A stretch of DNA of 40,251 nucleotides, from assembly GCA_964454415.1 (NCBI GenBank), contig CAYVYD010000001.1, forward strand, positions 1 to 40,251, given 5' to 3'. Under the pieces are notes generated by a model. It saw only the letters and a program-made list of their open reading frames with translations, made no database searches and was not told where the DNA came from. The stretch's first letter is position 1. Each line of letters opens with the position of its first letter. Both the position numbers and the translations under genes were made by a program. This DNA comes from an uncultured Hyphomicrobiaceae bacterium (GTDB taxonomy: Bacteria; Pseudomonadota; Alphaproteobacteria; Rhizobiales; Methyloligellaceae). This document shows, in pieces, positions 18,217 through 39,930 of the stretch.

Positions 18217-18217
18217 C

Positions 18218-19813: not shown

Positions 19814-20816
<1,003 letters not shown>

Positions 20817-20820
<4 letters not shown>

Positions 20821-22605: not shown

Positions 22606-22660
22606 GCCCCCGCCCCGCAAGATTCACGCAATACTTGTATTGAGTGTTAGCAACTCTCGT

Positions 22661-23976: not shown

Positions 23977-24993
23977 ATGCACAAGGAAATTCGTGATCGC
24001 GGAAGCGTTGCCGATGCCGGCGGCCCGCTCGCGGGCGAGCAACTGCTCGCCATGCACAGGGATTTGCTTCGCTTGAGGGCCACCGAGGAGACCATCGCCC
24101 GCCGCTACCGCGACCAGGAAATGCGGACGCCGACTCATCTGGGCACCGGCCAGGAGGCGGTCGCCGTCGGCGTGGCCGCCGCCTTGATGCCCGACGACGT
24201 GGTCTACAGCCACCACCGCAGCCACAACCACTATCTCTCCCGGGGGGGAAGCGTCTATCGGTTGGCGGCGGAGCTCTATGGGCGCGCCGACGGCTGCGCG
24301 GCCGGGCGCGGCGGTTCGGTCCACCTCACCGCCCGGGACGTTGGCTTCGTGGTCTCGAGCGCGATCCTCGGCGAGACCGTCGCCGTCGCCACCGGAAGCG
24401 CGCTCGCCTTCAAGATGGACGGCGCTCCGCGCGTCGCGGTCACCTTCTTCGGCGAGGCAACGCTGGAAGAAGGCATCATCTACGAGGCCATGAACTACGC
24501 CGCGATCAAGGCGCTTCCGGTCGTCTTCGTCTGCGAGAACAACCTCTACTCCACCGAAAGCCCGCTCGAGACCCGCCAGCCAGCCGGCACGCGGCTTTGC
24601 GCGCGGGCCGAGAGCTTCACCATCCCCGCCCGCCAGGTGGACGGCAACGACGTCGCCGCGGTCGCCGCTGCGGCGCGCGAAGCGGTCGACCGCGCGCGCT
24701 CGGGTGCCGGCCCTTCCTTCATCGAATGCACGACCTATCGCTGGCGCGAGCATGTGGGGCCGCTGTTCGACTGGGAGGCGGACCGCAGCTACCGCTCGCG
24801 GGCGGAGCTCGAGGAGTGGATAAAGCGCTGCCCGGTGGAGCGGAGCGCAAGGCGCCTGGCCGAGCTCGGCCTGGCGGGCGAGGACGAGCTCGCCGCCTGG
24901 CGCGATGAGGCATTCGCCTCCGTCGAGGCCGATTTCGAGCGGGCGAGCCGGGCGCCCTGGCCCGACGCCGCCGACCTCTTCGACAACGCTTGA
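23977..24993 (+). CDS. thiamine-diphosphate-dependent dehydrogenase E1 component, alpha subunit (AcoA/PdhA-like)
   Basis: ATG at 23977 (MHKEIRD...). HLGTGQEAVAVG and the ThDP-binding stretch FFGEATLEEGIIYEAMNYAAIKALPVVFVCENNLYS are present. The canonical motif is GDG...NN. Confidence 0.85.
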   Translation: MHKEIRDRGSVADAGGPLAGEQLLAMHRDLLRLRATEETIARRYRDQEMRTPTHLGTGQEAVAVGVAAALMPDDVVYSHHRSHNHYLSRGGSVYRLAAELYGRADGCAAGRGGSVHLTARDVGFVVSSAILGETVAVATGSALAFKMDGAPRVAVTFFGEATLEEGIIYEAMNYAAIKALPVVFVCENNLYSTESPLETRQPAGTRLCARAESFTIPARQVDGNDVAAVAAAAREAVDRARSGAGPSFIECTTYRWREHVGPLFDWEADRSYRSRAELEEWIKRCPVERSARRLAELGLAGEDELAAWRDEAFASVEADFERASRAPWPDAADLFDNA

Positions 24994-25023
24994 GCGGGCT
25001 GACGCAGTGACGCCGGGATCGCG

Positions 25024-26058
25024 ATGAGACTTCTCAAATACCACCAGGCCATTTCCGAGGGCACGGTTCAGGCGATGGAGCGGGACGAGAACGTCTTTTG
25101 CGCCGGCATCGCCGTCGACTACCCCTCCGGCATTTTCGGCACCACCAGCAAGGCGCTCGCACGCTTTGGGCCCGAGCGCGTCTTCGACACGCCCGCCATG
25201 GAGAACGCCTTCACCGGCATCTGCATCGGCGCCGCCGCCATGGGCAAGCGGCCGATCATGGTGCACCCGCGCAACGACTTCATGTTCCTGGCCTTCGACC
25301 AGCTCATCAATCTGGGCGCCAAGTGGCGCTACATGTATGGTGGAGGGGCGGGTTCCGTTCCCGTCGTCGTCCGCGCCGTGATCGGCCGCGGCTGGGGCCA
25401 GGGCGCAACCCACTCGCAAAGCCTGCAGGCCCCGCTCGCTCATTTCCCGGGGCTCGCCGTGGTGATGCCGGCGACGCCGGCCGACGCCAAGGGGCTGCTG
25501 CTGGCGGCCTGCCGCCACGACCGCCCCGTCGTCATCCTCGAGCATCGCGCTCTTTACGGCCTCGAGGGTGACGTTCCCGAGGCGCCGGTGGAGACGCCGA
25601 TCGGCAAGGCGAACGTGCTGCGCCAAGGCAACGACCTCTCGATCGTCGCCACCTCGCTGATGACCCAGGAGGCGCTGACCGCGGCCGACGAGCTCGCCAG
25701 GCACGGCATCGGCGCCGAGGTCGTGGATCTGCGCTCGATCCGGCCGCTGGACGAGGAAACGGTGCTCGCCTCGGTCGCCAAGACGGGGCGCGCCATCGTC
25801 GCCGATACGAGCTGGGAGCTGTGCGGCGTGGCGAGCGAGATCGCCGGGCTCTTGGCCGAGAAGGCGTTTTCCCACCTCAAGGCGCCGGTCCGCCGCCTGG
25901 CGCTTGCCGACTGCCCCGCCCCGGTATCGCTCGTCCTCGAGCAAGCCTTCTACCCCCGCGCCTCGACCATCGCCAGGCTGGCGCTGCACGTGATGGGGGC
26001 CGACCCCGACGCCGTCGGCGAGATCGACGCCGAGGACGACTTCAAGGGGCCATATTAG
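25024..26058 (+). CDS. E1 component beta subunit (transketolase-like pyrimidine-binding and C-terminal domains)
   Basis: VFDTPAMENAFTGICIGAAAMGKRPIM and a C-terminal VVDLRSIRPLD motif, both typical of E1 beta. 344 aa. Confidence 0.85.
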   Translation: MRLLKYHQAISEGTVQAMERDENVFCAGIAVDYPSGIFGTTSKALARFGPERVFDTPAMENAFTGICIGAAAMGKRPIMVHPRNDFMFLAFDQLINLGAKWRYMYGGGAGSVPVVVRAVIGRGWGQGATHSQSLQAPLAHFPGLAVVMPATPADAKGLLLAACRHDRPVVILEHRALYGLEGDVPEAPVETPIGKANVLRQGNDLSIVATSLMTQEALTAADELARHGIGAEVVDLRSIRPLDEETVLASVAKTGRAIVADTSWELCGVASEIAGLLAEKAFSHLKAPVRRLALADCPAPVSLVLEQAFYPRASTIARLALHVMGADPDAVGEIDAEDDFKGPY

Positions 26059-26113
26059 GAGAATGCGCGTCTTCCTACCTCGGCAAAGCTTTTCCACATA
26101 ACCTCTGCGCGTC

Positions 26114-28375
26114 ATGAATCAAGTTCGACAGCGCCAAACAAATCGGGTTTTCGACGCACTCGCCCTCGGCGTCATCGTCGTCACGATTCTGTTCTGCGCC
26201 ATCCAGTCCAAGGATCGTTTCTTCATCAATTGCAATGCCGAATGCGGCGAGGCCTTTCTCTCTCACCTCGCCGTGCAAAAATTCAGGTCCGACGGCTTCC
26301 GCTTCGCCCTGTTGGAAAATCTCGGCACCAGCGACAATCCCAGCCTTTATACGCACAACGTGAATCTCGGTGCGCTCTTCTTCGTCACCCTCGAGTCCCT
26401 GGGACTTACATCGGTCGACTCCAAGCAGCTTGTGGCCCTGTCGGTCTTCGCGCTCGGCCTGCTTTACCTGTATTTGAGCGTGCGCCTGGCCAGCGGCGAT
26501 CGTCTGCTTGGCTGCGTGGTTCTCGTGCTCCTATGCACCGGCTATTTCGCGGTCCTCGGCTTCGCCACCAATCCCCTGCGGGCTTGGCACTACGTCGCGC
26601 TGTTCGGCACCACCTTTCATTTGCAATCGTTCCTGCTGGCCTCGTCCCGGTCTGGCCGGGCCGGGAATCTGGCGGGCTTCGTATTCGCCGCGCTGATCGC
26701 CTTTGGCTGCGGCTATGACTTCTGGCTGATTTGCATGGCGGCCGCGGCAAGCATCGTCCTGCTGATCGACCGTCGCGGAATGGACTGGTCGGCCCGCTTC
26801 AAACTGCTCGCGCTTACCGGCTTGGTTTTTGCCGCGCCGTTCGCGGTCCGGCAGCTGCAGGTGATCGCCGGCATGGGGTTCGATTATTGGTTGCAGGATT
26901 TGCTCTATAGCCTGGCGATCAAGATCCCCAATGCGAGCCGACTCATCGATCTTCCCTCGACCGAAGAGATCGACGCCTTCTACGCCAGCCACCACGCCTT
27001 CCGCCCCCCGGCTCTCCCGTCCAACTCGATTCTGGTGATCCTGGGCACCTGGGGCGCCATGATCGAATGGATCACCATTCCCCGGTGGGGTATCACGACG
27101 GTCGCGATTTTCGTCTTCATGTCGTTCTACGCGCTGGTGCTCCGCTTCGGTACTGTCGAGCTCAACTCTCGCCCGCCGGCCCCGGTGGCGGCCTTGCTCA
27201 CGGACCTGTTGCTGCCCGTCACCGTCGGCGCCCTGATCGGGCTGGCGGTGTTCGCTCCGTTCTCCCTTCACGTCTATTTCAAGCACGAATTTCCGTTGGT
27301 CGCGGCGCTGTTGATGATCGCCGCGGGGGCGGCGCTGTACTGGCTGATCGATATCCTCTTTTTCACCGGCACAACGGCGCCGAGGCGGGCGCTCGCGCTT
27401 GCTCTCCTCGGCCTGGTCGTCGTCGACGGCGTGCTCGTGAAGCGGCGCGGCTACGAGGCGACCGAGCGGCCGAACCTTGGTTGGTGGCGGTTCGTGACGG
27501 AGCGTCCCCAGGCGCGGTTCCTGGTCTCCGCCTACTACCCCATGGGGCTGGCGGCGGTCATTGGGAGACCTGAGGATACCTTGGTCAAGCTGGATGCCGC
27601 CCAGGTTCTCAAGAACATCCCGCCTTCAGGGCCAGACGCCTCGCGGTTCGATTACTGGATCTACCAACCTTGGGATTACCTGACCAATTTCGACTCGCCG
27701 GAGCCGTCGTGCGAGTGGCGTGACTGGCTGGTCGAGATGATCCCCTTCAAGCGTCCCCCGATCTCGTTTTCGACCGACCCCCACGCCATGCAAAACCCGA
27801 TCGGACCCGGATCGATATTGACCAGCACCGCCGTCCTGCGGAATTTGCCGCAAGGCGCAAGGGTCGTGTTCGTTCCCCGCGGCGACTTCGCCGATCCGTC
27901 CAAGGCCCCGCGACCCGGCGCGCCGCCCGATCCGGCGCTGATCGAGCGGTTTGCGGTCGATGCCGTTTACAACTGCATCTACGGCCGACCTTTCGGCTGG
28001 ACGCGGACCGGAGCCCCGGTCCGCGACGCCGTCACCGTCGTCGACCTCGATGTCAGGCATCCATCGGGCGAGCGGCAGGCGCTCGGGCGGCTCTTCGCCA
28101 GGGTCGACGTTTCGATGCCCGAAGCGAGCCAACCGCTGGTTCCCCTGCCCGTTCGCGTTCCGGAGATCTCGCAGATCAGGTCGGCGTTTCCCCGCCTGCG
28201 CGTCGTTGAGACGTCGGCGGGACCCGGCTCCGGCTATGTGATCTTCGACCTTCGCCCGGCCGCTACCCGGTCCTCGGGCCGCGCCGGATCCCCCGATCGC
28301 GCCGCGCCGCGCCGCGTCTCGGCCGCGCCTTCCGGTGCCCCGCGCAAGCCTGGGAGCGCGAATGGCCGGCGGTAG
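26114..28375 (+). CDS. large polytopic membrane protein (P753), paralog of P900; candidate GT-C-type glycosyltransferase
   Basis: 753-aa ORF with an ATG start. A ~470-aa multi-helix N-terminal region is followed by a soluble C-terminal region and a low-complexity Arg/Pro/Ala tail. It shares the first-loop motif (AECGEAF...NPSLYTHNVNLG) and the C-terminal ...YVIFDL element with P900 and P520. Confidence 0.75.
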   Translation: MNQVRQRQTNRVFDALALGVIVVTILFCAIQSKDRFFINCNAECGEAFLSHLAVQKFRSDGFRFALLENLGTSDNPSLYTHNVNLGALFFVTLESLGLTSVDSKQLVALSVFALGLLYLYLSVRLASGDRLLGCVVLVLLCTGYFAVLGFATNPLRAWHYVALFGTTFHLQSFLLASSRSGRAGNLAGFVFAALIAFGCGYDFWLICMAAAASIVLLIDRRGMDWSARFKLLALTGLVFAAPFAVRQLQVIAGMGFDYWLQDLLYSLAIKIPNASRLIDLPSTEEIDAFYASHHAFRPPALPSNSILVILGTWGAMIEWITIPRWGITTVAIFVFMSFYALVLRFGTVELNSRPPAPVAALLTDLLLPVTVGALIGLAVFAPFSLHVYFKHEFPLVAALLMIAAGAALYWLIDILFFTGTTAPRRALALALLGLVVVDGVLVKRRGYEATERPNLGWWRFVTERPQARFLVSAYYPMGLAAVIGRPEDTLVKLDAAQVLKNIPPSGPDASRFDYWIYQPWDYLTNFDSPEPSCEWRDWLVEMIPFKRPPISFSTDPHAMQNPIGPGSILTSTAVLRNLPQGARVVFVPRGDFADPSKAPRPGAPPDPALIERFAVDAVYNCIYGRPFGWTRTGAPVRDAVTVVDLDVRHPSGERQALGRLFARVDVSMPEASQPLVPLPVRVPEISQIRSAFPRLRVVETSAGPGSGYVIFDLRPAATRSSGRAGSPDRAAPRRVSAAPSGAPRKPGSANGRR

Positions 28376-29957
28376 CGCGCGAGACCGCTGGGATTGTCTC
28401 CGTTCAGGCGCGCCATGGGCGATCCTGGCGGCAGTCGTCATTCTGCTGCTCTGGGCTTCAGCCAGTCCCAACGTCGCCTGGGTTCATCCCGAACTCCTCG
28501 GCACGTCGGTTTACGTCTGGAACGACCCCGGGGCCGGGCTGGCGTCGATGCTTCGCAAGGTCTTCGACTGGAAGGCCTTCGACCCCAACGTCAACCGGGT
28601 GAGGCCGCTCAATGACGCGGTGGAAGTCGTCGATGCCGTCGCCAGACCCTACCTCGTGCAAATCTTTCACGCCGTGCTCGCCCCCCTGCCGTCGACGCTT
28701 CTGCTGATCACCGCCGTTCCGATCGGCTTTTACGCCTGGAGCCGCCGCGTCCTGCGGGCCTGCTGGCCCGCGTTGCTGATCACCTTGCTGCTGATGTCCA
28801 CCGTGGCGTTCCTGTCGCTCGCGCTCGCCTATATCCGCCCCGCCAAGCGGCTCGACATGGTGCTAATGGTCGGCGTGATCTACTTCCTGGAGCGAAGCCG
28901 CGAGGCGAGCGGGAACCGCGATTTCTGGATCGGCTATGCCCTTTGCCTCGCCTCGTTCTTCGCCGACGAGCTGGGGCTCGCGAACTGGGCCTTGCTGTCG
29001 GTTCTCTATCGGCGCGAAAGCTGGAGGCGGGATACCGCCCGCGCCCTGGCGGTGTCGCTCCTGCCGCTACTGTTCCTCGGCATGTCGCAGTGGGCATTGC
29101 CCTTCATCTATCAGAATTTCAGCGTGCACGGCCCGTGGAACGCGCTCGGCGACGAACGCAAATGGGCGGTGTTCGGCTATTTGCTGGACCCGCGATTCTA
29201 CCAGGCCGCCGCGGTCGGGCTCGGGCGTTCGGTTTTGTCCTGCCTGGGCGTCGCCCGGCAGGACGTCCCGCTCGTCTGGGTCGCCGCCGCGGCCGTCCTT
29301 TTGATGCCGTTCGCCGCTTGGCTTTACCAGCGAAGCGCGCAAGCGCTCGATTGGTGCCTGAGCGGCGTTCTGGTCGCCGCCTTCAGCGCCTATGCGACGC
29401 TGCTCGACTGGTACCCCTTTCCCTTCGAGGTCAACTATTTGGGATCCTACAACTACTACTATCACAGCCCGGTCGCCGTGCTCGTCGCCTGCTGGCTGGT
29501 TTTCGGATGGCGCCTGTTCCGCGACCGGGTTCACCCTTCCCCCCCGGCGGTCGGCGCGCTGGTTGCCGGCCTTGTGCTGGCCGCTTCGCTGTCGAACGCC
29601 CTCATGTTCCCGCCGCTGAACCGCATGGTGCGGGCGATCCACTACTATCCCTACCAGGCCCCAAGGGTGGCGGCGGCACTGCAACGGGCCGGCTTTTCGG
29701 AGGACGATGCCGTGTGCTTCTCCAAAAATCCGAAAGGGGTGACGAAGGATTTTCACACTGCCCAGGACGCGGTGATCCTGGGATCCGCCCGCCCCGACGG
29801 CTTCGCGCCCATCCTGGAGATGGTCGAACGAACGCCAATCCTCACCACTTATCACCTTGCCCACATGGCCCGCTCGTTCTTTCCCTGGCGCCAATTGTCG
29901 ATCGAGTTCGGCGAGACCGGTACGCCGCCGCCCCGGTCCGGCGTCTGCCGCCAATAG
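28362..29957 (+). CDS. polytopic membrane protein (P540), hypothetical; candidate lipid-carrier-dependent glycosyltransferase
   Basis: The ATG at 28362 (MAGGSARDRW...) overlaps the P753 end by 14 nt; an alternative GTG lies at 28335. There are 10 or more hydrophobic segments and an acidic first loop (WNDPGAG...FDWKAFDPNVNRVRPLND). Confidence 0.7.
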   Translation: MAGGSARDRWDCLRSGAPWAILAAVVILLLWASASPNVAWVHPELLGTSVYVWNDPGAGLASMLRKVFDWKAFDPNVNRVRPLNDAVEVVDAVARPYLVQIFHAVLAPLPSTLLLITAVPIGFYAWSRRVLRACWPALLITLLLMSTVAFLSLALAYIRPAKRLDMVLMVGVIYFLERSREASGNRDFWIGYALCLASFFADELGLANWALLSVLYRRESWRRDTARALAVSLLPLLFLGMSQWALPFIYQNFSVHGPWNALGDERKWAVFGYLLDPRFYQAAAVGLGRSVLSCLGVARQDVPLVWVAAAAVLLMPFAAWLYQRSAQALDWCLSGVLVAAFSAYATLLDWYPFPFEVNYLGSYNYYYHSPVAVLVACWLVFGWRLFRDRVHPSPPAVGALVAGLVLAASLSNALMFPPLNRMVRAIHYYPYQAPRVAAALQRAGFSEDDAVCFSKNPKGVTKDFHTAQDAVILGSARPDGFAPILEMVERTPILTTYHLAHMARSFFPWRQLSIEFGETGTPPPRSGVCRQ

Positions 29958-29969
29958 GCCATAGCGCCC

Positions 29970-31730
29970 TCAATCCTGCATGTCGAAGTTCGACCAGGAC
30001 CGCTCCATGATGTCGCGCAGCCGGCCCGCGGGCATGTTCCAGATGTTGATGCGCCGCTGGGAGAACAGATCGGAGCGGCTGATCTCTGGAATGAGTTCAC
30101 GGAACTCCGGCGTGCGCCAGGGATCGAAATTGACGCTGATCGTCTTGCCCGTCAGTCCGCGATAGGCGGGCGAGAGCAGGGCGCGCACGCAGTCGATCGT
30201 GTTCTCCAGCAGCGCGCCTCCCTCCTTCAGCACGGCTTTGGTCTTGCGGTAGTGGCGGCGCCCCGCGCGGTCCTCCCCCGCGGCCATCGTCGGTTCGTGG
30301 ATGGGGCTCGCCACCATGCCGGGCGCGATCGCGTTCACCATGATGCCGTCCCCCGCGAGCTCGAGCGCCAGGGTCTCGGTCAAGCGGACCACACCCGCTT
30401 TCGCGGCGGCGTAGGCCGAATAGTTGGGAAAGGGCGTGAACGCGCCGCCGCCGGCGAAATTGATGATATGCGGCCGCTTGGCCTCCTTCATCAACGCGAT
30501 GCAGTGCTTGCAGGTCAGGAACGGGCCCCAGAGATCGGTCTTAAGGGTCTCGAGCCATTCCATCTCGTCCACCTGCCGGATATCGCCGACGGGCCCCATT
30601 TCGGCGGCGCAATTGATCAGCGCGTCGACGTGACCGAACGCGCCCGCGACCTGTTCGAAAAACGCCCCGACCGCATGATTGTCCGCCACGTCGCATGCCG
30701 CGTGGCGCACGCCGCCGCCCGCTGCCGCGGTCGCCTCGAGCTCGGCCTCGCGGCGCGCGCAAATAAACAGAGCGTGTCCGTCCGCGGCAAGCGCCTGCGC
30801 CAAACTGGCGCCGATGCCCGAGCTGGCGCCGGTGATCACGATGTTGAGTAGTCCCTCGGTCTGGAACGCCTCGCTGTCGGTTTGGCCGTCCCAGGCCCTG
30901 CTCAGGTTCAAGCCGATCTCGTCGATGCTATGCCGCCGTGGCGACGCCACGCTGAAAGGCTGCAGGCTGCGGCCGAGCGCGCCGCCGGAGCTCCATCCGC
31001 GCTTCACCCGCACATCCCAAAACAGCCGCGCCATGGTCGCCGCGACGCTCGCCAGGTTGCGGACCGTGACCGCCTTCGACTTGCCGGCCCTGCGCTCGTC
31101 GATCGGCAGCGCGACCTCGATATAGCTCAGGCCCAACGCAATTCCCTTCAGCAACGCTTCGGCCTGAAAGCCGAAACCGCCGGTTGTGATGGGCTCTAGG
31201 TCGAGGAACGTCTTCGGATAGATCGTCAGGCCGTTGTAGTAGTTCAGCCTATGGCCGAAGAGCAGGTTGAGCAGCAGCGTATAGGCCCGCGATAGCCCGC
31301 GCCGGAACGCCGGCCGCACCTCCGGGTTCGAGCTGTAGGAGGTGACGATGTCGGATTTTCCGAGATTGCTGAACAGCTGGACGAAGGAGCGGTAGGGCCA
31401 GGTGTTGTCGCCCGGAACGTAGGTGAAGTAGTGCTTGGTGCCGCGCTTGAGGCCCTCCACGTAGGATCGTCCCAGTCCGAGGCTCCTGTCGTGATGGATC
31501 GCCTCGACCGCCTCGAATTTGGCGGCGAGGTCGTCCGCCTCCTCGCGCGTGCCGTCCGTGCTCCCGTCGTCGACGATGATGATCTCGTAGTCGTCCACGG
31601 TGATGTCGAGCGCGCGAACGAGCCGCTCGATCGTCGGCCTGAGATTGCCCGCCTCGTTGAGCGCCGGCACCAGTACGGTGAGCGAGGGATTGAGCAGGAT
31701 CGGCGTCCTGTCGGTCGACGGTTCTGGCAT
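29970..31730 (-). CDS. fusion protein: GT2 polyprenyl-phosphate glycosyltransferase-like domain (N-terminal) plus classical short-chain dehydrogenase/reductase (C-terminal)
   Basis: aa 15-245 read LTVLVPALNEAGNL...IIIVDDGSTDGT...PIDERRAGKSK, a DPM1/ArnC/GtrB-like pattern. aa 295-535 read VITGASSGIG...NCAA...YAAAK...NAIAPG, a classical SDR pattern. No TM helices are evident. Confidence 0.85.
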   Translation of the reverse strand: MPEPSTDRTPILLNPSLTVLVPALNEAGNLRPTIERLVRALDITVDDYEIIIVDDGSTDGTREEADDLAAKFEAVEAIHHDRSLGLGRSYVEGLKRGTKHYFTYVPGDNTWPYRSFVQLFSNLGKSDIVTSYSSNPEVRPAFRRGLSRAYTLLLNLLFGHRLNYYNGLTIYPKTFLDLEPITTGGFGFQAEALLKGIALGLSYIEVALPIDERRAGKSKAVTVRNLASVAATMARLFWDVRVKRGWSSGGALGRSLQPFSVASPRRHSIDEIGLNLSRAWDGQTDSEAFQTEGLLNIVITGASSGIGASLAQALAADGHALFICARREAELEATAAAGGGVRHAACDVADNHAVGAFFEQVAGAFGHVDALINCAAEMGPVGDIRQVDEMEWLETLKTDLWGPFLTCKHCIALMKEAKRPHIINFAGGGAFTPFPNYSAYAAAKAGVVRLTETLALELAGDGIMVNAIAPGMVASPIHEPTMAAGEDRAGRRHYRKTKAVLKEGGALLENTIDCVRALLSPAYRGLTGKTISVNFDPWRTPEFRELIPEISRSDLFSQRRINIWNMPAGRLRDIMERSWSNFDMQD

Positions 31731-31748: not shown

Positions 31749-32654
31749 TCAGTGGGCCGGTTTTCTGGCGACGATACCGATGTTGCCGATCGGCAGGGTC
31801 AATCCAACCTTGCCGATGCCGGCCGACCGCGAGGCCCGCGAGGCCCAATGGCGCAGGCCTGTTGGCGCCAGCGGAAATCGCTCGATAAGGAACGCCAACG
31901 AGTAGCAGTTTCTCGTCGGCGCCGTCATCACCGTTTCGAAGCCGCAGCGCTCGACCAGACGGGCAAGCGTGGCCCGCGAAAAAAAGAAGGTATGAAAAAA
32001 ATTGTAGACCGGATAGCGCGCGCCCATCAGCCGGACGAGCGGCGTTTCGACGTCGTGCACGACGGCAAGGACCAGACCGCCGGGGCGGAGTTGCCGCCAT
32101 GCCCGCTCCAGGGTCTCGACGGGGCGGATCAAATGGTCGAGCACGTGGATGAAGGCGATCAGATCGAAGTGGTTATCGGGAAGGTCGCAATCCCCGTGGA
32201 AGGCCGAATGAATGCGGGCGTCGGGCAGTCGTTTGCGGGCCTCCTCGCGCGCCGCGGCCACCGGCTCGATGCCGGTGAGCTCGCGAAAACCCTCTTCCCG
32301 CGCCACCTCCAACAGCAGCCCGACGTCGCAGCCGACGTCGAGAACGCGGTCCTTGCGCTCCAGAAAGCGCCGCGCCATCCGGTAATAACCCGCCATGGTC
32401 GTCCTGACATTGCTTATTTCATCCGGATCCGCATTGGCTTCCGAGTAGCCGGTATAGAGGGCGCCGACCGCCGCTTCGTCGAAGATCGGCGCGGAGAAGA
32501 CCACGCCGCAACCGCGGCACCGGTTGATCTGGTAATGGCCGCTATAGGGGTCGAATCCGGCCGGAAGCGTCTCGCCGCGTTTCAGGGTCCCTGCATAGAG
32601 CAGGACCGCATCCGTCGAGCCGCAGAGGGTGCAGGCCGGCGCCGTCACCACCAT
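31749..32654 (-). CDS. class I SAM-dependent methyltransferase with an N-terminal Cys4 zinc-ribbon
   Basis: CTLCGS...CRGCG lies upstream of motif I VLDVGCDVGLLL. The ATG at 32654 shares one nt with the upstream TGA (TGATG). Confidence 0.8.
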   Translation of the reverse strand: MVVTAPACTLCGSTDAVLLYAGTLKRGETLPAGFDPYSGHYQINRCRGCGVVFSAPIFDEAAVGALYTGYSEANADPDEISNVRTTMAGYYRMARRFLERKDRVLDVGCDVGLLLEVAREEGFRELTGIEPVAAAREEARKRLPDARIHSAFHGDCDLPDNHFDLIAFIHVLDHLIRPVETLERAWRQLRPGGLVLAVVHDVETPLVRLMGARYPVYNFFHTFFFSRATLARLVERCGFETVMTAPTRNCYSLAFLIERFPLAPTGLRHWASRASRSAGIGKVGLTLPIGNIGIVARKPAH

Positions 32655-35600
32655 CAAGCTTCTCCCTCGCGCGCCCGGCGCCGCAGGATCCAGCCCCCCA
32701 AGACGAACAGAAGGACCGCCAAAAGCTCGATCAGACGGGCCCGAGGCGCGGCCGAGAACGGCTCGAACCGCATCTGGAGGTGGCGCGTGCCCGCCGGCAG
32801 ACGCACGCCGCGCATCACCGCGTTTGTAGCAAAGACCGGGATTTCGCTTCCATCCGCGTAGGCCCGCCAGGAGGGATGGTAGAGCCCGTTGACGACGAGG
32901 AACCGCTGCCGGGAAGAGGGATCGACGTCGATGTCGATGACGTCGCCGCGATAGCGCGCCTTGAGCTTGCCGCCCGCATCGAAGCCATCGCTTTGTCCGC
33001 TAATCCCCTCGACCAGCGGATTGGTCAGCACGCTGTCGCGATGGCCGGCGAAGACCACTCCCCGCGCTTTCCCATCAAAAGCGTTCCATTCATCGCCCGA
33101 CAGCGAGAAACGTTTGATTTGCGAATGGGCCGAGCACCCGTGTTCGTTGCAGGCGCGCGCGCGCAAAAGCACCGATCCCGTCTGCGCCTGGAATGTCAGC
33201 ATCGCACTGCCCTGCCCGCGGCCGAATCGCGCCACTTCGGCGAAACGCTCCATCGAAGAAACGCGTCCCTCGATGATGAGTTCGACATCGTCATACGGCC
33301 GTATGGTCAATTGGTAGCCGCTCGCTCCATTTCGGGCCACCGATGAGCCGGCCAAGTGCGGCGGTGTAATACCCGGAATGGCCACCTCCACATGGATAGG
33401 CGCTCCCATCGGGGCGCACGTCGTCTTGTTGCACGCCAGCAGCCTGTACAGCCACTGGCTCGTCGGCGGCAATTCGGGATCGAGCCAGGCCATTGCCACT
33501 GGCCCGAGGATCGCGACGCGGTCGCCCTTGCCCTCCATCCATGCGTTCTGCTCGGAGCCGGCCGCCGCGGCCGCCTTTTGCCGGTAGATCTCGATCCGCT
33601 CGGTGCCCTTGGGTGCCGGTTTGCTCCAGCCGAGCAGGACGCCACCGCCATAGACCGCGGTCGCCTCCAGACCTATCGACGATCCTATTCTTGCCGTCGT
33701 GGCGGTCACCGGCGTCGCGGCGACCGGCGTGATCCGTTCGGCGAGATACAGGCGCGGAAGCGGCGCGACGGGGTTCTCGACGATGCGTGGAAACGCCTGA
33801 TCCGATCGCCCGCCCTTCCCGTTGAAGTAGAGCGCCTCGTCTAGCATGACCGCATATTTGACGTTGAGCATCGAGAGCAACGCGGCGGAGAGCTGTTCTA
33901 GCGACCCGAACGCGATCGAACGCAGTCTCACCACGCCGTCTGGCCAGCCCAGCGCTTGCAACCTCGCCGGCACGCCGGCACCATATCCCCCGAGCTGGCG
34001 CAGTCTCCAGAACTGCGAAATATGCGGCGAGTTGTTGCTCGGGAAGGCTTCGTCGTCGGCGATCAACACGCTTCGATATCGCTCGGCCTCGAGCCGCCCG
34101 CGCAGCCGCTCCACTTGAGCGTCCGCTGGTGGGCGCAGCCGATCGCGCTCGACGGTCAGATAGTTGTTCGTTTTGAAAGGAATCGGGGCCGTCCTGGTGT
34201 GACTGCCGGCCAGCTTGAAGTGGCCGTATGTAACGGCCTCTCCGATGGCGAAACCGCCCATCAGCACGACGGCGCACGCCCCGGCGCTCAGCCCCATGAC
34301 CTTGCCCCTCGCGGCGGCCAGAACGCAGGCGAGAAAAACCGCCAGCGTCAGCCCGACCTCAACCGATACGATCGGGCTGAGCCGGTAGTTTGAGATCTTG
34401 ATCGACCAGGCATCGACGCCCACCGCCTGTTCGATGAGGTTTCCGTTGATGAGCCAGGCCAGGCAAAGACCAGCCGCAAAGAGAGCCGCGCCCAGTAGCG
34501 GCCCCATCCCCCGCCCGCTCTCCCGTGGCGACATCGGGCGTTGGTAATTTTCGCAATAAACAGCGAACAGGCTTGCCAGCGACAGCGTCGCCAGCAGCGA
34601 CAGCCGCGAATGGGTGAAGTCCACCTTGGCGAAGGCCAGGTAGAGCCCATAACGGGCCTCCTCCACGAGCACGAGGATCAGGACTGTCAACAACGCCCCC
34701 AGGTGAAACGCCGTATCGCGCGGCCTGGCCGGACGGTGCGCGGAGCGGGTGCTGCCTTCTGCCGCGGTGCCCGGCAACCACCCCAACCGCTTCGCAATTG
34801 CGGCGAGCGCGGCGATGCCGACAAGGGCGGCGAAGATCGTGAGGAAGATGGCCCCGGACCGTGATATTCCGGGAAACAGGTGCCAGCCCGGCACGTAAAG
34901 GAGGTCGACCCGCGAAAACGCCATGCCGCAAATGGCCAGGAACATTAGGGCGGCGGCGAGCTCGCCCCTCGATCGTGGCGTCATGATACCCGCTATCACC
35001 ACGAAAATGGCCATACTCGAACCCAGGAGCTGCAGGCCTTCATGCAGGTTGAGCGAATTGCCCAGTTCCCTTCCCTCGCCCATCGAGCGCCCGAGAAATC
35101 CCTCATGCACCAATCGGGCGATTTCCGAATAATCAGTGTAGTGAAATGTTTGCGTTCGAAAGAGCTGCTGGAAATCGCCGGCCACCGATATCAGGCGGGG
35201 AGCGGCGAACACCAGCGCCACGAGAACGGCGGCCGCGAAAACGGTGACGGGACGCTGGAAGTCGCGCTCGCCGGCCCGCAGCGCGGCCGCCCCGCGATAG
35301 AGGCTGTAGGCTCCCAGATAGATCATCACATAGGCGGCTTCCTGAAGAAAACCGTAGAAACACAGCACCGTCAGGATCGCAGCCAAACCGGCATAGGCGA
35401 GCAGCGCCTGGCTCTGTGCCTTTCGGATCGCCAAAAGCCCCAGCGGCAGCAAGATGAGCGTCATTTGCGCGGAATCGACTTGAGCGGCCCGGTGCAAGGA
35501 GTAGACCGAGAGGCCGTAGACGACGGCGCCCGCAACCGCCGGAAGGCCGGGCCGCGCGAGGTCGCTGATGTAAAGATAGGCGGAGACGCCCGCCAGGGCG

Positions 35601-35944
35601 GTGAGCGCGGCTGAGACGTAACCCAACACGCGAAAAATCTCGCCGCGCTCGAACAGCGCCAGAAAATAGGGAATGGGATCGGGGCCCGGGTTCATCCAAT
35701 GCAGGCCCGCCATCGAGAAGCCGCCGAACATGCCCTCGTTCCAGAGCGGAACCCGCCCCAGGGTGCGAATTGAATCGTATTCGAACAAACGGAGGTTGAG
35801 ATACGAGTTGAGCCGGTCGGAATCGCCGATGAAGGTGCTGACGCCGAACAGATGGTCGCCGAACACGATCAGCACCGCTGCGGCGATCACCCCGCCCGCG
35901 AGCCAACCGTATCTCCGTTCGCGTCGCCGTGCGCTGACTGTCAT
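32654..35944 (-). CDS. YfhO-family-like giant membrane protein (P1096) with an inserted pair of FN3-like modules
   Basis: The N-terminal GDSDRLNSY...RVPLWNEGMFGGFSMAG and the C-terminal NGLYHPSWRAYADGSEIPVFATNAVMRGVRLPAGTRHLQMRFEP, followed by a terminal TM, match the YfhO layout. There are roughly 14 hydrophobic segments. Confidence 0.75.
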   Translation of the reverse strand: MTVSARRRERRYGWLAGGVIAAAVLIVFGDHLFGVSTFIGDSDRLNSYLNLRLFEYDSIRTLGRVPLWNEGMFGGFSMAGLHWMNPGPDPIPYFLALFERGEIFRVLGYVSAALTALAGVSAYLYISDLARPGLPAVAGAVVYGLSVYSLHRAAQVDSAQMTLILLPLGLLAIRKAQSQALLAYAGLAAILTVLCFYGFLQEAAYVMIYLGAYSLYRGAAALRAGERDFQRPVTVFAAAVLVALVFAAPRLISVAGDFQQLFRTQTFHYTDYSEIARLVHEGFLGRSMGEGRELGNSLNLHEGLQLLGSSMAIFVVIAGIMTPRSRGELAAALMFLAICGMAFSRVDLLYVPGWHLFPGISRSGAIFLTIFAALVGIAALAAIAKRLGWLPGTAAEGSTRSAHRPARPRDTAFHLGALLTVLILVLVEEARYGLYLAFAKVDFTHSRLSLLATLSLASLFAVYCENYQRPMSPRESGRGMGPLLGAALFAAGLCLAWLINGNLIEQAVGVDAWSIKISNYRLSPIVSVEVGLTLAVFLACVLAAARGKVMGLSAGACAVVLMGGFAIGEAVTYGHFKLAGSHTRTAPIPFKTNNYLTVERDRLRPPADAQVERLRGRLEAERYRSVLIADDEAFPSNNSPHISQFWRLRQLGGYGAGVPARLQALGWPDGVVRLRSIAFGSLEQLSAALLSMLNVKYAVMLDEALYFNGKGGRSDQAFPRIVENPVAPLPRLYLAERITPVAATPVTATTARIGSSIGLEATAVYGGGVLLGWSKPAPKGTERIEIYRQKAAAAAGSEQNAWMEGKGDRVAILGPVAMAWLDPELPPTSQWLYRLLACNKTTCAPMGAPIHVEVAIPGITPPHLAGSSVARNGASGYQLTIRPYDDVELIIEGRVSSMERFAEVARFGRGQGSAMLTFQAQTGSVLLRARACNEHGCSAHSQIKRFSLSGDEWNAFDGKARGVVFAGHRDSVLTNPLVEGISGQSDGFDAGGKLKARYRGDVIDIDVDPSSRQRFLVVNGLYHPSWRAYADGSEIPVFATNAVMRGVRLPAGTRHLQMRFEPFSAAPRARLIELLAVLLFVLGGWILRRRAREGEA

Positions 35945-35950: not shown

Positions 35951-37871
35951 CTAACGTTGAGGCTTGGTTGTCGCAAGATCGAATATCTTGACAAGCCCGT
36001 TGTCGAGCACGAGCGGATAGTTTCGCGACAGATTGCTCTCGAGTTGCGCCATGCAGCTCTCGTCCAAACGGTTCTACTCGGTGAGGGTATTGGCCGGCAG
36101 GCAATCGGCGAAACCCGGAAACAGGCGCTTGTCCGAGAAATAAAAGAAATAGCGCGTGCGTTGCGCGCGCCAGTAATCGACACGCCGCATGAAGCCGACC
36201 TTGCATGCGTCCAGCGACACCGCGCCGCCCGCGTCCACGGAGCTGGGACCGCAAACGCCGATCCCGGCGCCTGGGTCAGAAAGCCGACCAATGCGACATT
36301 GATATTGGTCATGAAAAGCTCACCGCGAAAGGTCTTGATCTGTTCCAAGGGTCGCCACGTGGGCTGCTTGGCCATCCAGAGCGTAAAGCGCAGCGTGGCC
36401 ATTGCCGGCCGCAGTGCGGTTCGAGCGAATTGAACGAGCGAGACCGCCAGCAGGACGGCAAGAAACAATCCCGCCACAGTGCGTGCGGCCTGGTGCGGAT
36501 ACCCCGCCCATGCCGTCGAGCCTCGCCCCCTGCACCTGCCCAAAGCCGGGCGCGCAGGTCGATGGCGGCCACGGCGGCGATCCTCACGAAATGGTAAAGG
36601 CCGAGGCTCAAAACGGCAGCGACCCCCAAACCCAAGACCATGATGTTGGCTCCAAATCCGGTGGGCGTGACCTCCTGGGCGAAAGCGGGAAACAGCAGGA
36701 TCGGCGCCCACGCCGTGCCGATGCCCCAAATCGCAAAGCGAAAAAACAGTGATGCCGTTCGGGCTGGGCCCGCTGTGCCCAACTGCTGCCGGTCGCCCGG
36801 GGGCGCACGAGCGAACGAATCCCCCAAAACCCCGATGAGGAGACTGATTGCACCGATCGCGGCGACGGCGGCCCCTCCAGGAACCGTCAGGCTGTTGCGA
36901 AGTTGGGCGCGGACGACGTGCCAGGAAATTTCGTGCGCGCCGTGATGCACCACGTGAATTGACCGGTAGAAGGCGCTCATCTCCTCCTGGCTGGGGGTTC
37001 CCGTAATGCGGTTGGAGAGCGTGAGCCACATTTCCTGCAGGAAGACCTCCGGGCCCAAATAAAGAAAATTTTGCAGGAGATGGAGCCCGATTCCGGCGGC
37101 GAAGGCGCACCCCATCGCGATCACCTCCCGGGGCCGGATCGGCAGAAGCTGCGTCAGGAACAGGAAGACCCAGCAGAACATGACGCCGGAGAGCGCCGAA
37201 TATTCGATGTAGAAGGTGGAGACGAGTGCAACGCCAAAGGCAGTGGCGAAATAGGCCATCCGTCCGGTCCTGAGATACCAATCGAACATCAGCAGCGGCA
37301 GGAACGCCAACAGCGGATAGAGCGCATAGATCTGCCGCTCCATGAAATTGGCGACGTTCCAGGCGCCGAGCAGGAGGACGGCAAGCCCCGCCAGCTTGAA
37401 ACCGTGACGCTCCAACAGCGCTCTGGCGAACAGGAAATAGACCCCCAGGCCGGCGAGCGCGACGAGGCCCAGCACGGTCCGCACGACGGCGTAGTCGCCA
37501 TCGGAGATTTTTAAAATCAGCGCCGTGATCAGTTCCGGCGCCGGTGGCATGTGATTGTAGACGTAAGGGTGGTCGAGCGGATCGGCGCTGCTCGCGAAAT
37601 CCTGCAAAAGCCCGGTGACGAAAAATCCGTACTCCAGGTAATTCCGCGCGGTGTTGAAAATGTAGGCGGCCTCCTCGACCAGCGAGAACGGCGTGAACAG
37701 CTCCGACTCGAAAGTTATCTTCAAATGCAGAATGAAGATCGCCACCACCAGGCACAGCGCCACGGCGGCGATCGTCCAATCCGCGATCCCAACCGCGGTT
37801 CGCGCCACGATGACGCTGCGCGCCTCGGCGGACTTGGGCCCGTCACCCCCGTTGCCTGACGCTGCCGCCAT
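35951..37871 (-). pseudogene. third paralog of the P900/P753 family (P520); membrane domain intact, C-terminal domain disrupted
   Basis: The annotatable ORF 36309..37871 (520 aa) ends in ~80 Arg/Cys/Trp-rich residues. The family-like sequence continues in a second frame (TVAGLFLAVLL...WMAKQPTWRPLEQ...GFLTQAPGSAFAV, about 36500-36240). It then continues in a third frame (VDAGGAVSLDACKVGFMRRVDYWRAQ...), which is interrupted by an in-frame TAG at 36074-36076. That frame ends ...NGLVKIFDLATTKPQR with a stop at 35951-35953. Sequencing errors cannot be excluded. Confidence 0.5.
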
Positions 37872-37881: not shown

Positions 37882-38385
37882 TTACCCTCCCGGCCCCAGC
37901 AGCCACAGCGATTTGAGCCAATCGAACCCCCGCGCCACCGCCTTGCCGCGCCGCGTCAAGCGGTAACCGGAGCCTGCGGGCGCGATGTAGCCGCCCGCGG
38001 CCATGCCGGCGAGCCGCGCTTCGATAAAGGCCGGCGAGGTGAACGTCGCGGCCAGTCTTTCCTCCTCGACATGACCGTCCGGACGGCTGGCGAGTAGCCG
38101 CAACGTTTCGACTGAGAGCGAATGGGTCAGCGTGTAGATCAAGGGCATGTAGAGGACGACGAGACCCAGGAATGCGAGTTCGCCCCACAGGACCGCCGTG
38201 ATTGTTCCACCAACGCCCGGCGGCGCGCCGGCCGCCGCGACGACGGCGATGAGGAGGGCGAATGCCGGGACCAGCTTGAGGGCGAGGGGTCCGCGCTCGA
38301 TGCCGCGGGTAACGCGCGGCGACAGGAGATGCAGCCCAGCGAACAGGGCGAAGCAGAGGACCCCGATGGCGGCGGCGGCCGTCAC
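37882..38385 (-). CDS. small membrane protein with a C-terminal winged-helix-like domain (P167)
   Basis: 167 aa with three N-terminal hydrophobic segments, then ...ARLAGMAAGGYIAPAGSGYRLTRRGKAVA, a wHTH wing-like pattern. It is a paralog of the upstream gene and overlaps it as ATGA. Confidence 0.65.
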   Translation of the reverse strand: MTAAAAIGVLCFALFAGLHLLSPRVTRGIERGPLALKLVPAFALLIAVVAAAGAPPGVGGTITAVLWGELAFLGLVVLYMPLIYTLTHSLSVETLRLLASRPDGHVEEERLAATFTSPAFIEARLAGMAAGGYIAPAGSGYRLTRRGKAVARGFDWLKSLWLLGPGG

Positions 38386-38939
38386 TCTTCAGCCGCCTCT
38401 CGTTCCGGCCGGCCCGGCCCCAACATCGCTTGCGCCCGCCCGAGCGCCCTGGCCAGCCGCGAACCCTTCGGCGTGATCGCGACGTCGCCTCCCCGCCGTT
38501 CGATCAGGCCGAGGCCGCGCATACCAGCCAAACGCTTCTCATACATCCAGGCAAGCCCGTGCCCCGCGCCGTAGGATTTTGCGATATCCGCTGCCGACAT
38601 AGCACGCGGTTCGGCATCCAGCATATCGATCAGAATGCGCAGGGAAAGTCCCCGCTCGGCCAGGTTGTAGAGTTGCAGCAGACCGCCCCAATAGCCGGAA
38701 ATGTAGAGAAAAACCGCGAACGCCAGATCGCAGGCGGCCGGGGCCGCGAGCACGTCTTGCGGCAGCATCCACAGATCGTCCGGGGTCGCGAGGTGGAGCG
38801 CGACGAGGCTCGCCAGCCCGGCTCCAAACAGGCCGGCGAGCGATCGGAAACGATGCTTCCCGGAGATGCCGCGCAACAGGCCCGTCATCGCTGCCGCGGT
38901 CCCCAATCCCATTGCGGCGGCCAACAGCAGCGCTTTCAT
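38382..38939 (-). CDS. small membrane protein with a C-terminal winged-helix-like domain (P185)
   Basis: 185 aa with N-terminal hydrophobic segments, then LRILIDMLDAEPRAMSAADIAKSY...RLAGMRGLGLIERRGGDVAITPKGSRLARAL. Confidence 0.65.
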   Translation of the reverse strand: MKALLLAAAMGLGTAAAMTGLLRGISGKHRFRSLAGLFGAGLASLVALHLATPDDLWMLPQDVLAAPAACDLAFAVFLYISGYWGGLLQLYNLAERGLSLRILIDMLDAEPRAMSAADIAKSYGAGHGLAWMYEKRLAGMRGLGLIERRGGDVAITPKGSRLARALGRAQAMLGPGRPEREAAEE

Positions 38940-38952: not shown

Positions 38953-39930
38953 TCACTCCGACGGGGTCTCCGCTTCCACCCGCCCGGCCGGCCTGCGCGC
39001 CAGCCACACGCCGCAGCCCACCAGGCTGAAGAGCACCGAAAGCGCGCCGAACAGGACCGAGACGAGAAAAGCGGGACCGGCCTGGACGCCCATCAGCCCG
39101 AAGGCGACCACCATCAGGCCCTCGCGCACGCCCCAGCCGGCGACCGTGATCGGGATCATGGCGAGCTCCATCACCAACGGCACCACCAGAATGCAGGCGA
39201 ACAGACTCACCTGGATTCCCAAATCGGCGAACAGGACGTAGATCATCGCCGCGTTGAGGACGTTGACGGCGAGACCGAGCGCGACCGCCCCCAGCGTCTT
39301 CAAGGGCGCGGTGAAGGAGACCCGCAGGACGGACACCAGATCCAACAGCAGCGGAATGACGGCGACAGCCTTCAGGCGCGCTGTGAGTTTCTTTTCGAGA
39401 CCCACGCGGCCCCGCAGAAAGGCGAACACAAACAGCATCGCGATCGCCGCAGCTCCGCCCAAGGCCACCGCCAAAAGCACAGTCCGCTTGAGGGGACTGT
39501 CCATCAAGGCGAATGACCAGGGCAGGAAGGCCAGGATCAACAGATGGTTGGCGATGATGCCGGTCAGCCGGTCGAGCAGGACGCCGCTCGCCGCGTTCCG
39601 GATGCCGATGCCCTCGCGCTTCAGCTCCCACAGACGGGCGGCGTCGCCGCCGAGGAAAGAGAGGAAGGTTTGCGAGAAGAACAGGCCCACCAGCGAGACC
39701 GGCACCGCCTCCTTCAAGCTCAATCTTTCCTTCAGCGTCGCCATCACCAGCGACAATCGCCCCGAGGCGATTGCCTGCTGGATCAGAAGCAGCAGACCGA
39801 AGCCCGCCAGACCGGCGGCGCTGAAGGCGGCGGCGTTCTCGAAGGTTTCGCCGAAATCGATCCGTTGCGAGATCAGCCAAAGCAACAGCGCGGAAAACGC
39901 GATTTTTGCGATCAGCGCGAGACGGTTCAC
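38953..39930 (-). CDS. UPF0104 / LPG-synthase-TM family 'flippase-like' membrane protein
   Basis: 325 aa with about 8 TM segments. The family-typical pattern is ...RLSLVMATLKERLSLKEAVPVSLVGLFFSQTFLSFLGGDAARLWELKREG...VLLDRLTG. Confidence 0.75.
   Translation of the reverse strand: MNRLALIAKIAFSALLLWLISQRIDFGETFENAAAFSAAGLAGFGLLLLIQQAIASGRLSLVMATLKERLSLKEAVPVSLVGLFFSQTFLSFLGGDAARLWELKREGIGIRNAASGVLLDRLTGIIANHLLILAFLPWSFALMDSPLKRTVLLAVALGGAAAIAMLFVFAFLRGRVGLEKKLTARLKAVAVIPLLLDLVSVLRVSFTAPLKTLGAVALGLAVNVLNAAMIYVLFADLGIQVSLFACILVVPLVMELAMIPITVAGWGVREGLMVVAFGLMGVQAGPAFLVSVLFGALSVLFSLVGCGVWLARRPAGRVEAETPSE

Follow-up and report, generated by a model that had tools for sequence, protein, structure and literature searches.

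Three-component glycosylation systems such as GtrA/GtrB/GtrV, CsbB/GtcA/YfhO and PgfS/PgfM pass a sugar from a cytoplasmic family 2 glycosyltransferase (GT2) via a flippase to a GT-C enzyme, and form a general bacterial route by which O-antigens, teichoic acids and surface proteins are decorated. Polyprenyl-phosphate GT2s (ArnC, GtrB, CsbB, DPM1/DPMS, PpgS) share a GT-A fold, conserved nucleotide-binding aspartates and an R-x-x-G-x-S-K motif, diagnostic for this family, that leads into an amphipathic helix, and are encoded alongside a GT-C enzyme and a flippase candidate. We describe here a relative encoded in a 40,251-nucleotide stretch of DNA from an uncultured Hyphomicrobiaceae bacterium (contig CAYVYD010000001.1 of assembly GCA_964454415.1; the whole stretch is referred to hereafter as the window), in which a gene on the minus strand (29970..31730) continues a GT2 of this type into a C-terminal short-chain dehydrogenase/reductase (SDR). 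GT2-SDR retains all of these family features, and a YfhO-family GT-C is encoded at its locus. It differs in having no transmembrane (TM) helices (present in ArnC, GtrB and archaeal DPMS, absent as here from human DPM1), in an invariant proline at the position of the first aspartate of the DXD site, in the SDR itself, and in two co-encoded small membrane proteins that match no classified family. The locus likewise departs from the described three-component systems: the flippase candidate is a PF03706 protein rather than GtrA/GtcA, several large GT-C-like proteins are encoded, the donor would come from a dedicated higher-sugar cassette, and a tailoring domain is fused to the GT2.

The fusion of an SDR-type tailoring domain to an enzyme of the same pathway has precedents in ArnA of the 4-amino-4-deoxy-L-arabinose (Ara4N) pathway, where an extended SDR decarboxylase is fused to a formyltransferase (and not to the polyprenyl-phosphate GT2 ArnC), and in the Bcs1/Acs1 CDP-ribitol synthases (in Bcs1, an SDR reductase with a cytidylyltransferase). 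Lipid-linked sugars can themselves be SDR substrates: DprE2 is an SDR that reduces decaprenyl-P-2-keto-ribose and needs the FAD oxidase DprE1. The SDR epimerase ORF13 of pentofuranose three-component systems acts on undecaprenyl-phosphate-ribofuranose (PMC11127046). DprE2 and ORF13 resemble GT2-SDR in being SDR-superfamily enzymes tied to a polyprenyl-phosphate donor that a GT-C uses (PMC11127046), but are separate proteins whose donors derive from phosphoribosyl pyrophosphate, and ORF13 is a GalE-like extended SDR. Literature searches for a GT2-SDR fusion, or for a lipid-stage oxidoreductase tied to a GT-C, turned up nothing beyond the paper on pentofuranose three-component systems and some mycobacterial reviews, and returned no published description of the fusion, of the SDR subfamily to which its C-terminal half belongs, or of the two small membrane proteins.

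The fusion gene is a single uninterrupted open reading frame (ORF) with an ATG start, encoding 586 residues followed by a stop. Pfam places the GT2 domain PF00535 at residues 18-142 (E 1.3e-20), adh_short at residues 297-480 (E 5.5e-44) and adh_short_C2 at residues 301-534, and every motif quoted in the initial annotation is found on this one polypeptide (NEAGNL at 25-30, IIIVDDGSTDGT at ~50-61, PIDERRAGKSK at 209-219, TGASSGIG at 300-307 and YAAAK at 440-444). A search of 5.8 billion proteins returned 357 that match the fusion at E<=1e-5; the best 120 of these, from which all residue conservation counts given below (x/120) are taken, are 536-605 aa long, each contain both domains, and are ~48-69% identical to the query at 94-100% query coverage. 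The protein itself is found, identical, on three independent contigs. Fused copies occur in metagenome-assembled genomes (MAGs) of Nitrospira, Alpha- and other Proteobacteria, Legionellaceae, Alcaligenaceae, Sphingomonadaceae, Xanthobacteraceae and Chloroflexota, with one homologue whose source is named as a Methanofastidiosa archaeon; among 185,579 species representatives there are 23 matches, all 23 from MAGs or single-amplified genomes (SAGs). An assembly artefact or hidden frameshift, the split-gene alternative named beforehand in the initial annotation, is ruled out by the more than 350 full-length fused homologues and the identical copies on three independent contigs. As the homologues come from independent assemblies and several phyla, the fusion is genuine, and is conserved at full length across phyla. 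Database names of fusion-family members, and of the SDR relatives described below, are generic.

The two domains are joined by a poorly conserved linker (residues 248-293; 30852..30989, minus strand), which is of low confidence in the model (predicted local distance difference test, pLDDT, <50 at residues 260-286) and ranges from 18 to 64 aa across the fusion family with a median of 43 aa. The tail following the SDR had been put at ~90 aa, which proved too long: only ~52 residues (535-586) lie beyond the SDR fold.

The GT2 catalytic domain (residues ~14-246; 30993..31691, minus strand) is of the DPM1/GtrB/ArnC type by fold and motifs, as the initial annotation had proposed and as profile, structural and conservation evidence agree. 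By sequence, the GT2 half alone finds its best solved match in Pyrococcus dolichol-phosphate mannose synthase (DPMS), with ArnC and GtrB weaker. When 30 GT2-only sequences of the family were combined into a profile and searched against the PDB, DPMS (5e-18), GtrB (3e-14) and ArnC (5e-12) gave the longest alignments into the domain; the alignments to chondroitin and heparosan synthases stop within the N-terminal nucleotide-binding part. Given the full-length fusion model (pTM 0.75), Foldseek returned nothing but SDR matches, and we therefore built a second, GT2-only AlphaFold model (pLDDT 87; predicted template modelling score, pTM, 0.84). With this model, ranks 1-16 against the PDB are all ArnC, GtrB or DPMS (3e-15 to 6e-11, TMq 0.63-0.71), ArnC being the top match (3e-15, TM ~0.70), and the first other enzyme is RmlT (9e-11), followed by GpgS. 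A processive or soluble-acceptor enzyme, the grouping that the initial annotation had set against its own, was rejected, the chondroitin/heparosan synthase and GpgS matches being either N-terminal only or structurally lower-ranked.

Conservation within the GT2 half follows the same pattern. Residues D55, D59, D108, R143, S147 and E205 are each present in 120/120 members, and the PIDERxxGxSK motif is close to invariant (R213 118/120, G216 117/120, S218 120/120, K219 119/120). At the DXD site, P106-G107-D108 (part of an invariant P106-G-D108-N109) aligns opposite D89-A-D91 of the Pyrococcus enzyme, such that the second aspartate is invariant and the first is an invariant proline. The R-x-x-G-x-S-K motif is followed by an amphipathic helix (residues 223-247; 30990..31064, minus strand), helical in the AlphaFold model and with a hydrophobic moment of 0.59, which corresponds to the interface helix of solved polyprenyl-phosphate GT2 enzymes and is predicted to lie at the membrane interface. 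The C-terminal TM helices expected of such an enzyme are absent, as the initial annotation had noted of the TM hairpin: a hydropathy scan finds no TM segment in the fusion protein (maximum 19-residue Kyte-Doolittle mean of 1.59). TM helices are not universal in the family, human DPM1 likewise having none. Transfer of a sugar from a nucleoside diphosphate (NDP) carrier to polyprenyl phosphate is a prediction for this domain, for which the surrounding GT-C and flippase-like genes provide a supportive context.

The GT2 half belongs to a wider family of unfused, TM-less GT2 proteins of 240-260 aa that are 50-60% identical to it. In a Bordetella-like MAG (L025), a 261-aa unfused GT2 (50% identity) ends directly after the amphipathic helix, and is flanked by a YfhO-like gene and by homologues of both small membrane proteins (s185 and s167, see below) with no SDR and no methyltransferase; because of this locus we regard the GT-C, the TM-less GT2 and the two small membrane proteins as the core of the module, and the SDR as an add-on. 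A second, unfused TM-less GT2 paralogue (~260 aa, 34-57% identity) was observed in fused loci L009, L015, L017, L018, L019 and L021, an indication that the several GT-C-like proteins are supplied with two different lipid-linked sugars.

The SDR domain (residues 294-534; 30129..30851, minus strand) is of the classical type, with a Rossmann fold, a TGxxxGxG cofactor motif (G301xxxG305xG307) and NCAG (373-376) at the NNAG site. Foldseek matches to classical SDRs reach TMt 0.76-0.85, and the nearest solved relatives, at ~30% identity, are FabG-type and polyketide ketoreductases, gluconate 5-dehydrogenase and hydroxybutyrate dehydrogenases. NCBIfam offered generic FabG-type/SDR models only, all far under their cut-offs, and was rejected as a basis for assignment. 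Residues G301, G305, G307, R326, N373, Y440, K444, P470, G471 and the glycine triplet Gly427, Gly428 and Gly429 are each found in 120/120 members, and T475, NCAG and the PG motif are invariant or nearly so. An arginine directly after β2, the position occupied by R326, marks NADP(H) use in classical SDRs, and so suggests a reductive role for the domain.

The Asn-Ser-Tyr-Lys tetrad of classical SDRs is incomplete: Tyr440 and Lys444 are kept, but the catalytic serine (Ser144 in actinorhodin ketoreductase, by alignment) is replaced in 120/120 by Gly427, the first residue of the invariant Gly-Gly-Gly (codon at ~30450-30452, minus strand). The tetrad asparagine is conserved in 119/120, and the window protein has an aspartate there, Asp399 (codon at ~30534-30536, minus strand). 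The initial annotation had called the SDR complete; this holds for the domain, with its TGASSGIG and YAAAK motifs, and not for the canonical tetrad. A serine or threonine at position 438 is one candidate replacement for the missing catalytic serine. Beyond the fold, the conserved tail (residues 535-586; 29973..30128, minus strand; NFDPW...RSDL..RRIN) is a hallmark of the subfamily to which the domain belongs.

To place this domain outside the fusion, residues 291-586 were searched against 1.84 billion cluster representatives, with 281 representatives of 50%-identity clusters reaching E<=1e-30. Stand-alone relatives are 280-300 aa long, the closest being 53%, 49% and 44% identical; numerous others lie at 35-41%. 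Other members are fused to different partners: to a nucleotide-sugar dehydrogenase, with the SDR first (P0250) or second (P0310) and again in P0396, to a Methyltransf_23 domain in another lineage (P0303), or to a GT2 in a longer GT2-SDR (P0243). Since the stand-alone members (those of 53%, 44% and 41% identity were aligned) and the GT2-, dehydrogenase- and methyltransferase-fused members share in alignment the GGG at the serine site, the arginine after β2, SAYAxSK and the FDPW...RRI tail (FDPW...SDLYxxRRI), we group them as one "GGG-type" SDR subfamily.

The genomic contexts of related loci, read within ±8-10 kb, place the stand-alone members in NDP-sugar cassettes. In L033/L034, which hold the 53% relative, and in L035, a Methanoperedens locus with the 44% relative, the gene order is epimerase, DegT aminotransferase, epimerase, HldE-like kinase/nucleotidyltransferase, GFO oxidoreductase, NDP-sugar dehydrogenase, SDR, SIS isomerase, transaldolase and HAD phosphatase. 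The SDR start overlaps the dehydrogenase stop in L033/L034 and follows it within 3 nt in L035; a stand-alone SDR also abuts the dehydrogenase gene in L037, and in L036 an SDR-dehydrogenase fusion occupies the SDR/dehydrogenase slot of the cassette. Beyond the cassette, L035 encodes GT4 enzymes and a Wzx-like flippase, and no polyprenyl-phosphate GT2 was seen there within ±10 kb. A Pelagibacteraceae single-cell genome (L031) unites the two contexts, with a stand-alone GGG-type SDR, SIS isomerase, epimerase, HldE-like protein, GFO oxidoreductase, epimerase, E1 alpha, E1 beta, unfused GT2 and transaldolase, and is a natural split version of the GT2-SDR arrangement.

The window contains an orthologous cassette, on the minus strand and with the following identities to the L033/L035 proteins: SIS isomerase (23191-23877; 51-61%), HAD phosphatase (22661-23521; 40-45%), transaldolase (21865-22620; 32-34%, and above the TIGR02134 cut-off), epimerase (20817-21818; 44-54%), epimerase/dehydratase (19810-20910; 55-57%), HldE-like kinase/nucleotidyltransferase (18218-19813; 52-53%, with reversed domain order), GFO oxidoreductase (17278-18228; 38-45%) and NDP-sugar dehydrogenase (15995-17305; 37-42%). 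These are accompanied by an RmlD-like reductase (15092-15979, minus strand), with no match in L033/L035, and by a second methyltransferase (14409-15095, minus strand), matched in L033 only (40%); the window cassette has no DegT aminotransferase. On the plus strand lie the alpha (23881-24993; E1_dh 5.8e-65) and beta (25024-26058; Transket_pyr and Transketolase_C) subunits of a thiamine-diphosphate-dependent E1 enzyme, a pair found repeatedly in company with the sugar cassette and the GT2 module. A 736-aa minus-strand ORF over the same region (23905-26115), considered as a conserved partner, was discarded as an antisense artefact of E1 alpha/beta in a window of 65% GC, its "homologues" carrying in-frame stops where the plus strand gives strong Pfam matches.

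When the SDR half was compared by BLAST with every ORF of the window, its sole match was itself, i.e., the GT2-fused copy. As the window cassette has no separate SDR, the SDR domain is most simply read as the cassette SDR step moved onto the GT2; this complementary distribution draws on the window and ~10 informative loci. The cassette is present in Methanoperedens, Pelagibacteraceae and further uncultured lineages. In L007, L009 and L025-L028, GT2 modules have cassette genes within 8-10 kb, which together with L031 argues for a functional link between the GT2 module and the cassette, E1 alpha/beta included.

The cassette recalls the lincosamide GDP-octose pathway, whose enzymes include the transaldolase LmbR, isomerase LmbN, phosphatase LmbK, nucleotidyltransferase LmbO, epimerase LmbM, dehydrogenase LmbL, LmbZ and transaminase LmbS (PMC12945683). 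The likeness to this pathway (LmbR, N, P, K, O, M, L, Z, S) is one of enzyme roles, and extends to a dedicated transaldolase, SIS-type isomerase, kinase, HAD phosphatase, nucleotidyltransferase, epimerase, UDP-glucose-dehydrogenase-like dehydrogenase and GFO partner; sister loci also have an aminotransferase, which the window does not. Relative to the lincosamide pathway, the cassette adds the E1 alpha/beta pair and the GGG-type SDR, and its product is predicted to end up in a surface glycan rather than in an antibiotic. In the work of Wang et al. (PNAS 2020), the LmbL/LmbZ pair is reported to make a keto-deoxy intermediate, which we mention as an analogy only and do not use as evidence. The GmhA, GmhB and HldE heptose-pathway models match the cassette only below their cut-offs, and we therefore name its sugar no more precisely than "heptose- or octose-like". 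At the window edge lies a gene for ribose-5-phosphate isomerase A (52-750, minus strand), the placement of which may be coincidental; the LmbR-type transaldolase of octose synthesis uses ribose 5-phosphate as its acceptor.

The fusion is the last gene of a tightly packed minus-strand operon (successive gaps of 13, -4, 10, 364, -4 and 18 nt) that encodes, in order, a PF03706 (LPG_synthase_TM/TIGR00374) flippase-like membrane protein (38953..39930; 4.5e-32), s185 (38382..38939), s167 (37882..38385), a 520-aa polytopic membrane protein (36309..37871) that matches nothing in Pfam, is conserved in related loci and is a candidate second GT-C-like enzyme, a 1096-aa YfhO-like GT-C membrane glycosyltransferase with many TM helices by hydropathy (32654..35944; Pfam YfhO 41.5 bits against a cut-off of 28.5), and, 18 nt upstream of the fusion, an S-adenosylmethionine-dependent methyltransferase (31749..32657; Methyltransf_23, with an N-terminal 4-Cys motif). 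The plus strand encodes two more polytopic membrane proteins, of 753 aa (26114..28375) and 540 aa (28335..29957), for which Pfam again gives no match; they converge on the fusion gene and are also candidate GT-C-like proteins. No GtrA/GtcA-type flippase is present at the window locus; NCBIfam gives weak matches there to PgfS and PgfM2.

We compared the module proteins by BLAST with 29 non-redundant related loci, of which 15 are fused loci with downstream sequence available. Homologues of both s185 and s167 occur in 15/15 fused loci, directly after the fusion where gene order was examined; they are found in L004-L022 and L025-L027, and also follow unfused GT2s. The methyltransferase is present in 11 of the 15, usually immediately upstream of the fusion, the YfhO-like protein in nine within the fetched range (and in unfused loci too), and the PF03706 protein in seven. 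Methyltransferase and SDR are not strictly coupled, a possibility we rejected since L005, L012 and L018 have the SDR with no adjacent methyltransferase and L026 shows the reverse. The P0303 fusion, together with the Methyltransf_23 gene directly upstream of GT2-SDR in 11/15 loci, nevertheless suggests that a methylation step is adjacent to the SDR step in the pathway.

By hydropathy and BLAST in related loci, s185 has three and s167 approximately three TM helices, each followed by a C-terminal domain resembling a winged helix-turn-helix (wHTH), which the positive-inside rule places in the cytoplasm. The two are distant paralogues of each other, and searches of Pfam, NCBIfam and the PDB found no relative beyond a faint winged-helix similarity. 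Possible roles for the pair are as subunits that provide a membrane anchor or as components of the flippase. The eukaryotic DPM synthase (DPM1, DPM2 and DPM3) likewise combines a TM-less catalytic GT2 with small membrane proteins, an analogy that is purely architectural; s185 and s167 have no detectable sequence similarity to DPM2/DPM3 and, unlike them, bear the wHTH-like cytoplasmic domains (weak Pfam matches only).

The obvious reading of this module context is that GT2-SDR would make the donor for three-component glycosylation in the periplasm. The initial annotation had proposed this role with respect to the GT-C-like proteins of the locus, and the conservation across phyla of the YfhO-like GT-C, the GT2 and their partner proteins speaks for it. 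Further upstream, the minus strand (5124-14033) carries other genes of a glycan locus: a fused ABC exporter (5124-6890), proteins of 900 aa (7663-10365) and 436 aa (10423-11733), both with no Pfam match, an FkbM methyltransferase (11752-12582) and a 489-aa GT2 (12564-14033). The presence of the exporter is a hint that the locus makes a polymer dependent on an ABC transporter, and the GT-C enzymes might decorate it.

We sought to combine these elements into a single pathway, and the balance of evidence tilts, if not steeply, toward GT2-SDR as a bifunctional, peripherally membrane-associated enzyme whose SDR would finish an NDP-sugar that its GT2 then loads onto lipid, feeding three-component glycosylation in the periplasm. 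The window cassette would build an NDP-activated higher-carbon sugar, heptose- or octose-like, and the SDR domain would supply the one cassette step for which there is no separate gene here, probably a late NADPH-dependent reduction of a keto intermediate produced by the dehydrogenase/GFO pair. The GT2 domain, held at the membrane by its amphipathic helix and, we propose, by the two small 3-TM proteins, in the manner of DPM2/DPM3 with DPM1, would then take the completed sugar off its nucleotide and load it onto polyprenyl (undecaprenyl) phosphate. The lipid-linked sugar would be flipped, with the PF03706 protein as the candidate flippase, and the YfhO-like and other GT-C-like enzymes would attach it to an extracytoplasmic glycan or protein. 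The order dehydrogenase, SDR, GT2 appears the most economical because, depending on the genome, the SDR subfamily is found fused either to the dehydrogenase or to the GT2. Channelling of a tailored (keto-)sugar nucleotide into lipid loading had been the secondary idea of the initial annotation, and fits the data better than its leading one, given that the SDR relatives sit in NDP-sugar cassettes.

Several observations weigh against this pathway. The fusion joins neighbouring steps and does not fix their order, and an SDR that recognizes the sugar moiety only could act after transfer. Ketoreductases of NDP-sugars are usually extended, not classical, SDRs. With the catalytic serine missing (Gly427) and Asp399 at the tetrad asparagine, the SDR chemistry may be unusual, or impaired in the window copy. 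In addition, the unfused-GT2 loci L025 and L027 have no SDR within ±8 kb despite their cassette genes, so the SDR step is not universal.

The leading idea of the initial annotation was that redox or epimerization takes place at the lipid-linked stage as for DprE2: the GT2 would load first, and the tethered SDR would then reduce, oxidize or epimerize the polyprenyl-phosphate sugar in the manner of DprE2 or ORF13. The fusion would put the SDR at the membrane beside the emerging lipid-linked product, SDRs that act on polyprenyl-phosphate sugars have a precedent (PMC11127046), and the SDR is an optional extra on an otherwise complete GT2 module; the glycine at the serine site and the conserved tail could, moreover, be adaptations to a phospholipid-linked substrate. 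We nonetheless regard this order of events as unlikely, since the same SDR subfamily (relatives of 44-53% identity) stands alone in soluble NDP-sugar cassettes or is fused to dehydrogenases that act on soluble NDP-sugars, L035 pairs the SDR with GT4 enzymes and a Wzx-type flippase rather than with a polyprenyl-phosphate GT2, and exactly this SDR is what the window cassette does not otherwise contain. A DprE1-like FAD oxidase (FAD_binding_4/ALO-type) that could supply a lipid-linked ketone is also absent from the ~50 window ORFs scanned with Pfam.

A more elaborate form of lipid-stage chemistry, which we likewise hold to be doubtful, is a multi-subunit polyprenyl-phosphate-sugar synthase, in which the GT2 would be anchored by the two 3-TM/wHTH subunits as in DPM1-DPM2-DPM3 and the Ser-less SDR would edit a lipid-loaded rare sugar of the heptose or octose type. 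Were this the case, the synthase would be a one-polypeptide counterpart of DprE2/ORF13 lipid-stage editing, in both bacteria and archaea.

A smaller chance still attaches to an SDR that acts earlier, on a sugar phosphate or small cassette intermediate, with the fusion serving co-expression or co-localization and no hand-over between the domains. Classical SDRs commonly take small sugars and sugar phosphates, as in the ribulose-5-phosphate reductase half of the Bcs1-type CDP-ribitol synthases, and the nearest solved relatives of the domain are FabG-type and similar enzymes; the varied fusion partners (GT2, dehydrogenase, methyltransferase) would fit a loose membership of the pathway. The constant partner or neighbour of the SDR is, however, an NDP-sugar dehydrogenase, which acts after nucleotide activation, and the ~50% identity across phyla over the whole fused protein, tail included, indicates a constrained two-domain unit. 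That the SDR is catalytically dead, an NAD(P)-sensing or oligomerization module that regulates or scaffolds the GT2, would suit the glycine in place of the catalytic serine in all members, Asp399 in the window protein and the dimers and tetramers common among SDR folds, but is highly improbable given that Tyr440, Lys444, the glycine-rich cofactor motif, NCAG, PG and T475 are (near-)invariant in the 120, and also present in the stand-alone cassette enzymes, as in an active enzyme, and given that the window cassette would then be left with no such step.

Taken as a bifunctional donor-maker that finishes an NDP-sugar before loading it, GT2-SDR would make its system work like known three-component glycosylation, of which it is an uncharacterized, widespread variation and not a categorically new type. 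Relative to the literature searched, what is new is a polyprenyl-phosphate GT2 with a built-in sugar-tailoring domain, a TM-less bacterial polyprenyl-phosphate GT2 that travels with two small unannotated membrane proteins (maybe anchoring subunits), and a donor sugar predicted to come from a dedicated cassette for higher-carbon sugars that is similar to the lincosamide octose pathway. The GGG-type SDR subfamily, widespread and outside every curated family, is a well-defined target for enzymology, and its dehydrogenase-SDR, SDR-GT2 and SDR-methyltransferase fusions provide a testable order of pathway steps. The carriers found among the 185,579 species representatives, which include Nitrospira, SAR11 relatives, Methanoperedens and Chloroflexota, are all uncultured MAGs or SAGs, and the glycan product would be a surface structure of environmentally important microbes.

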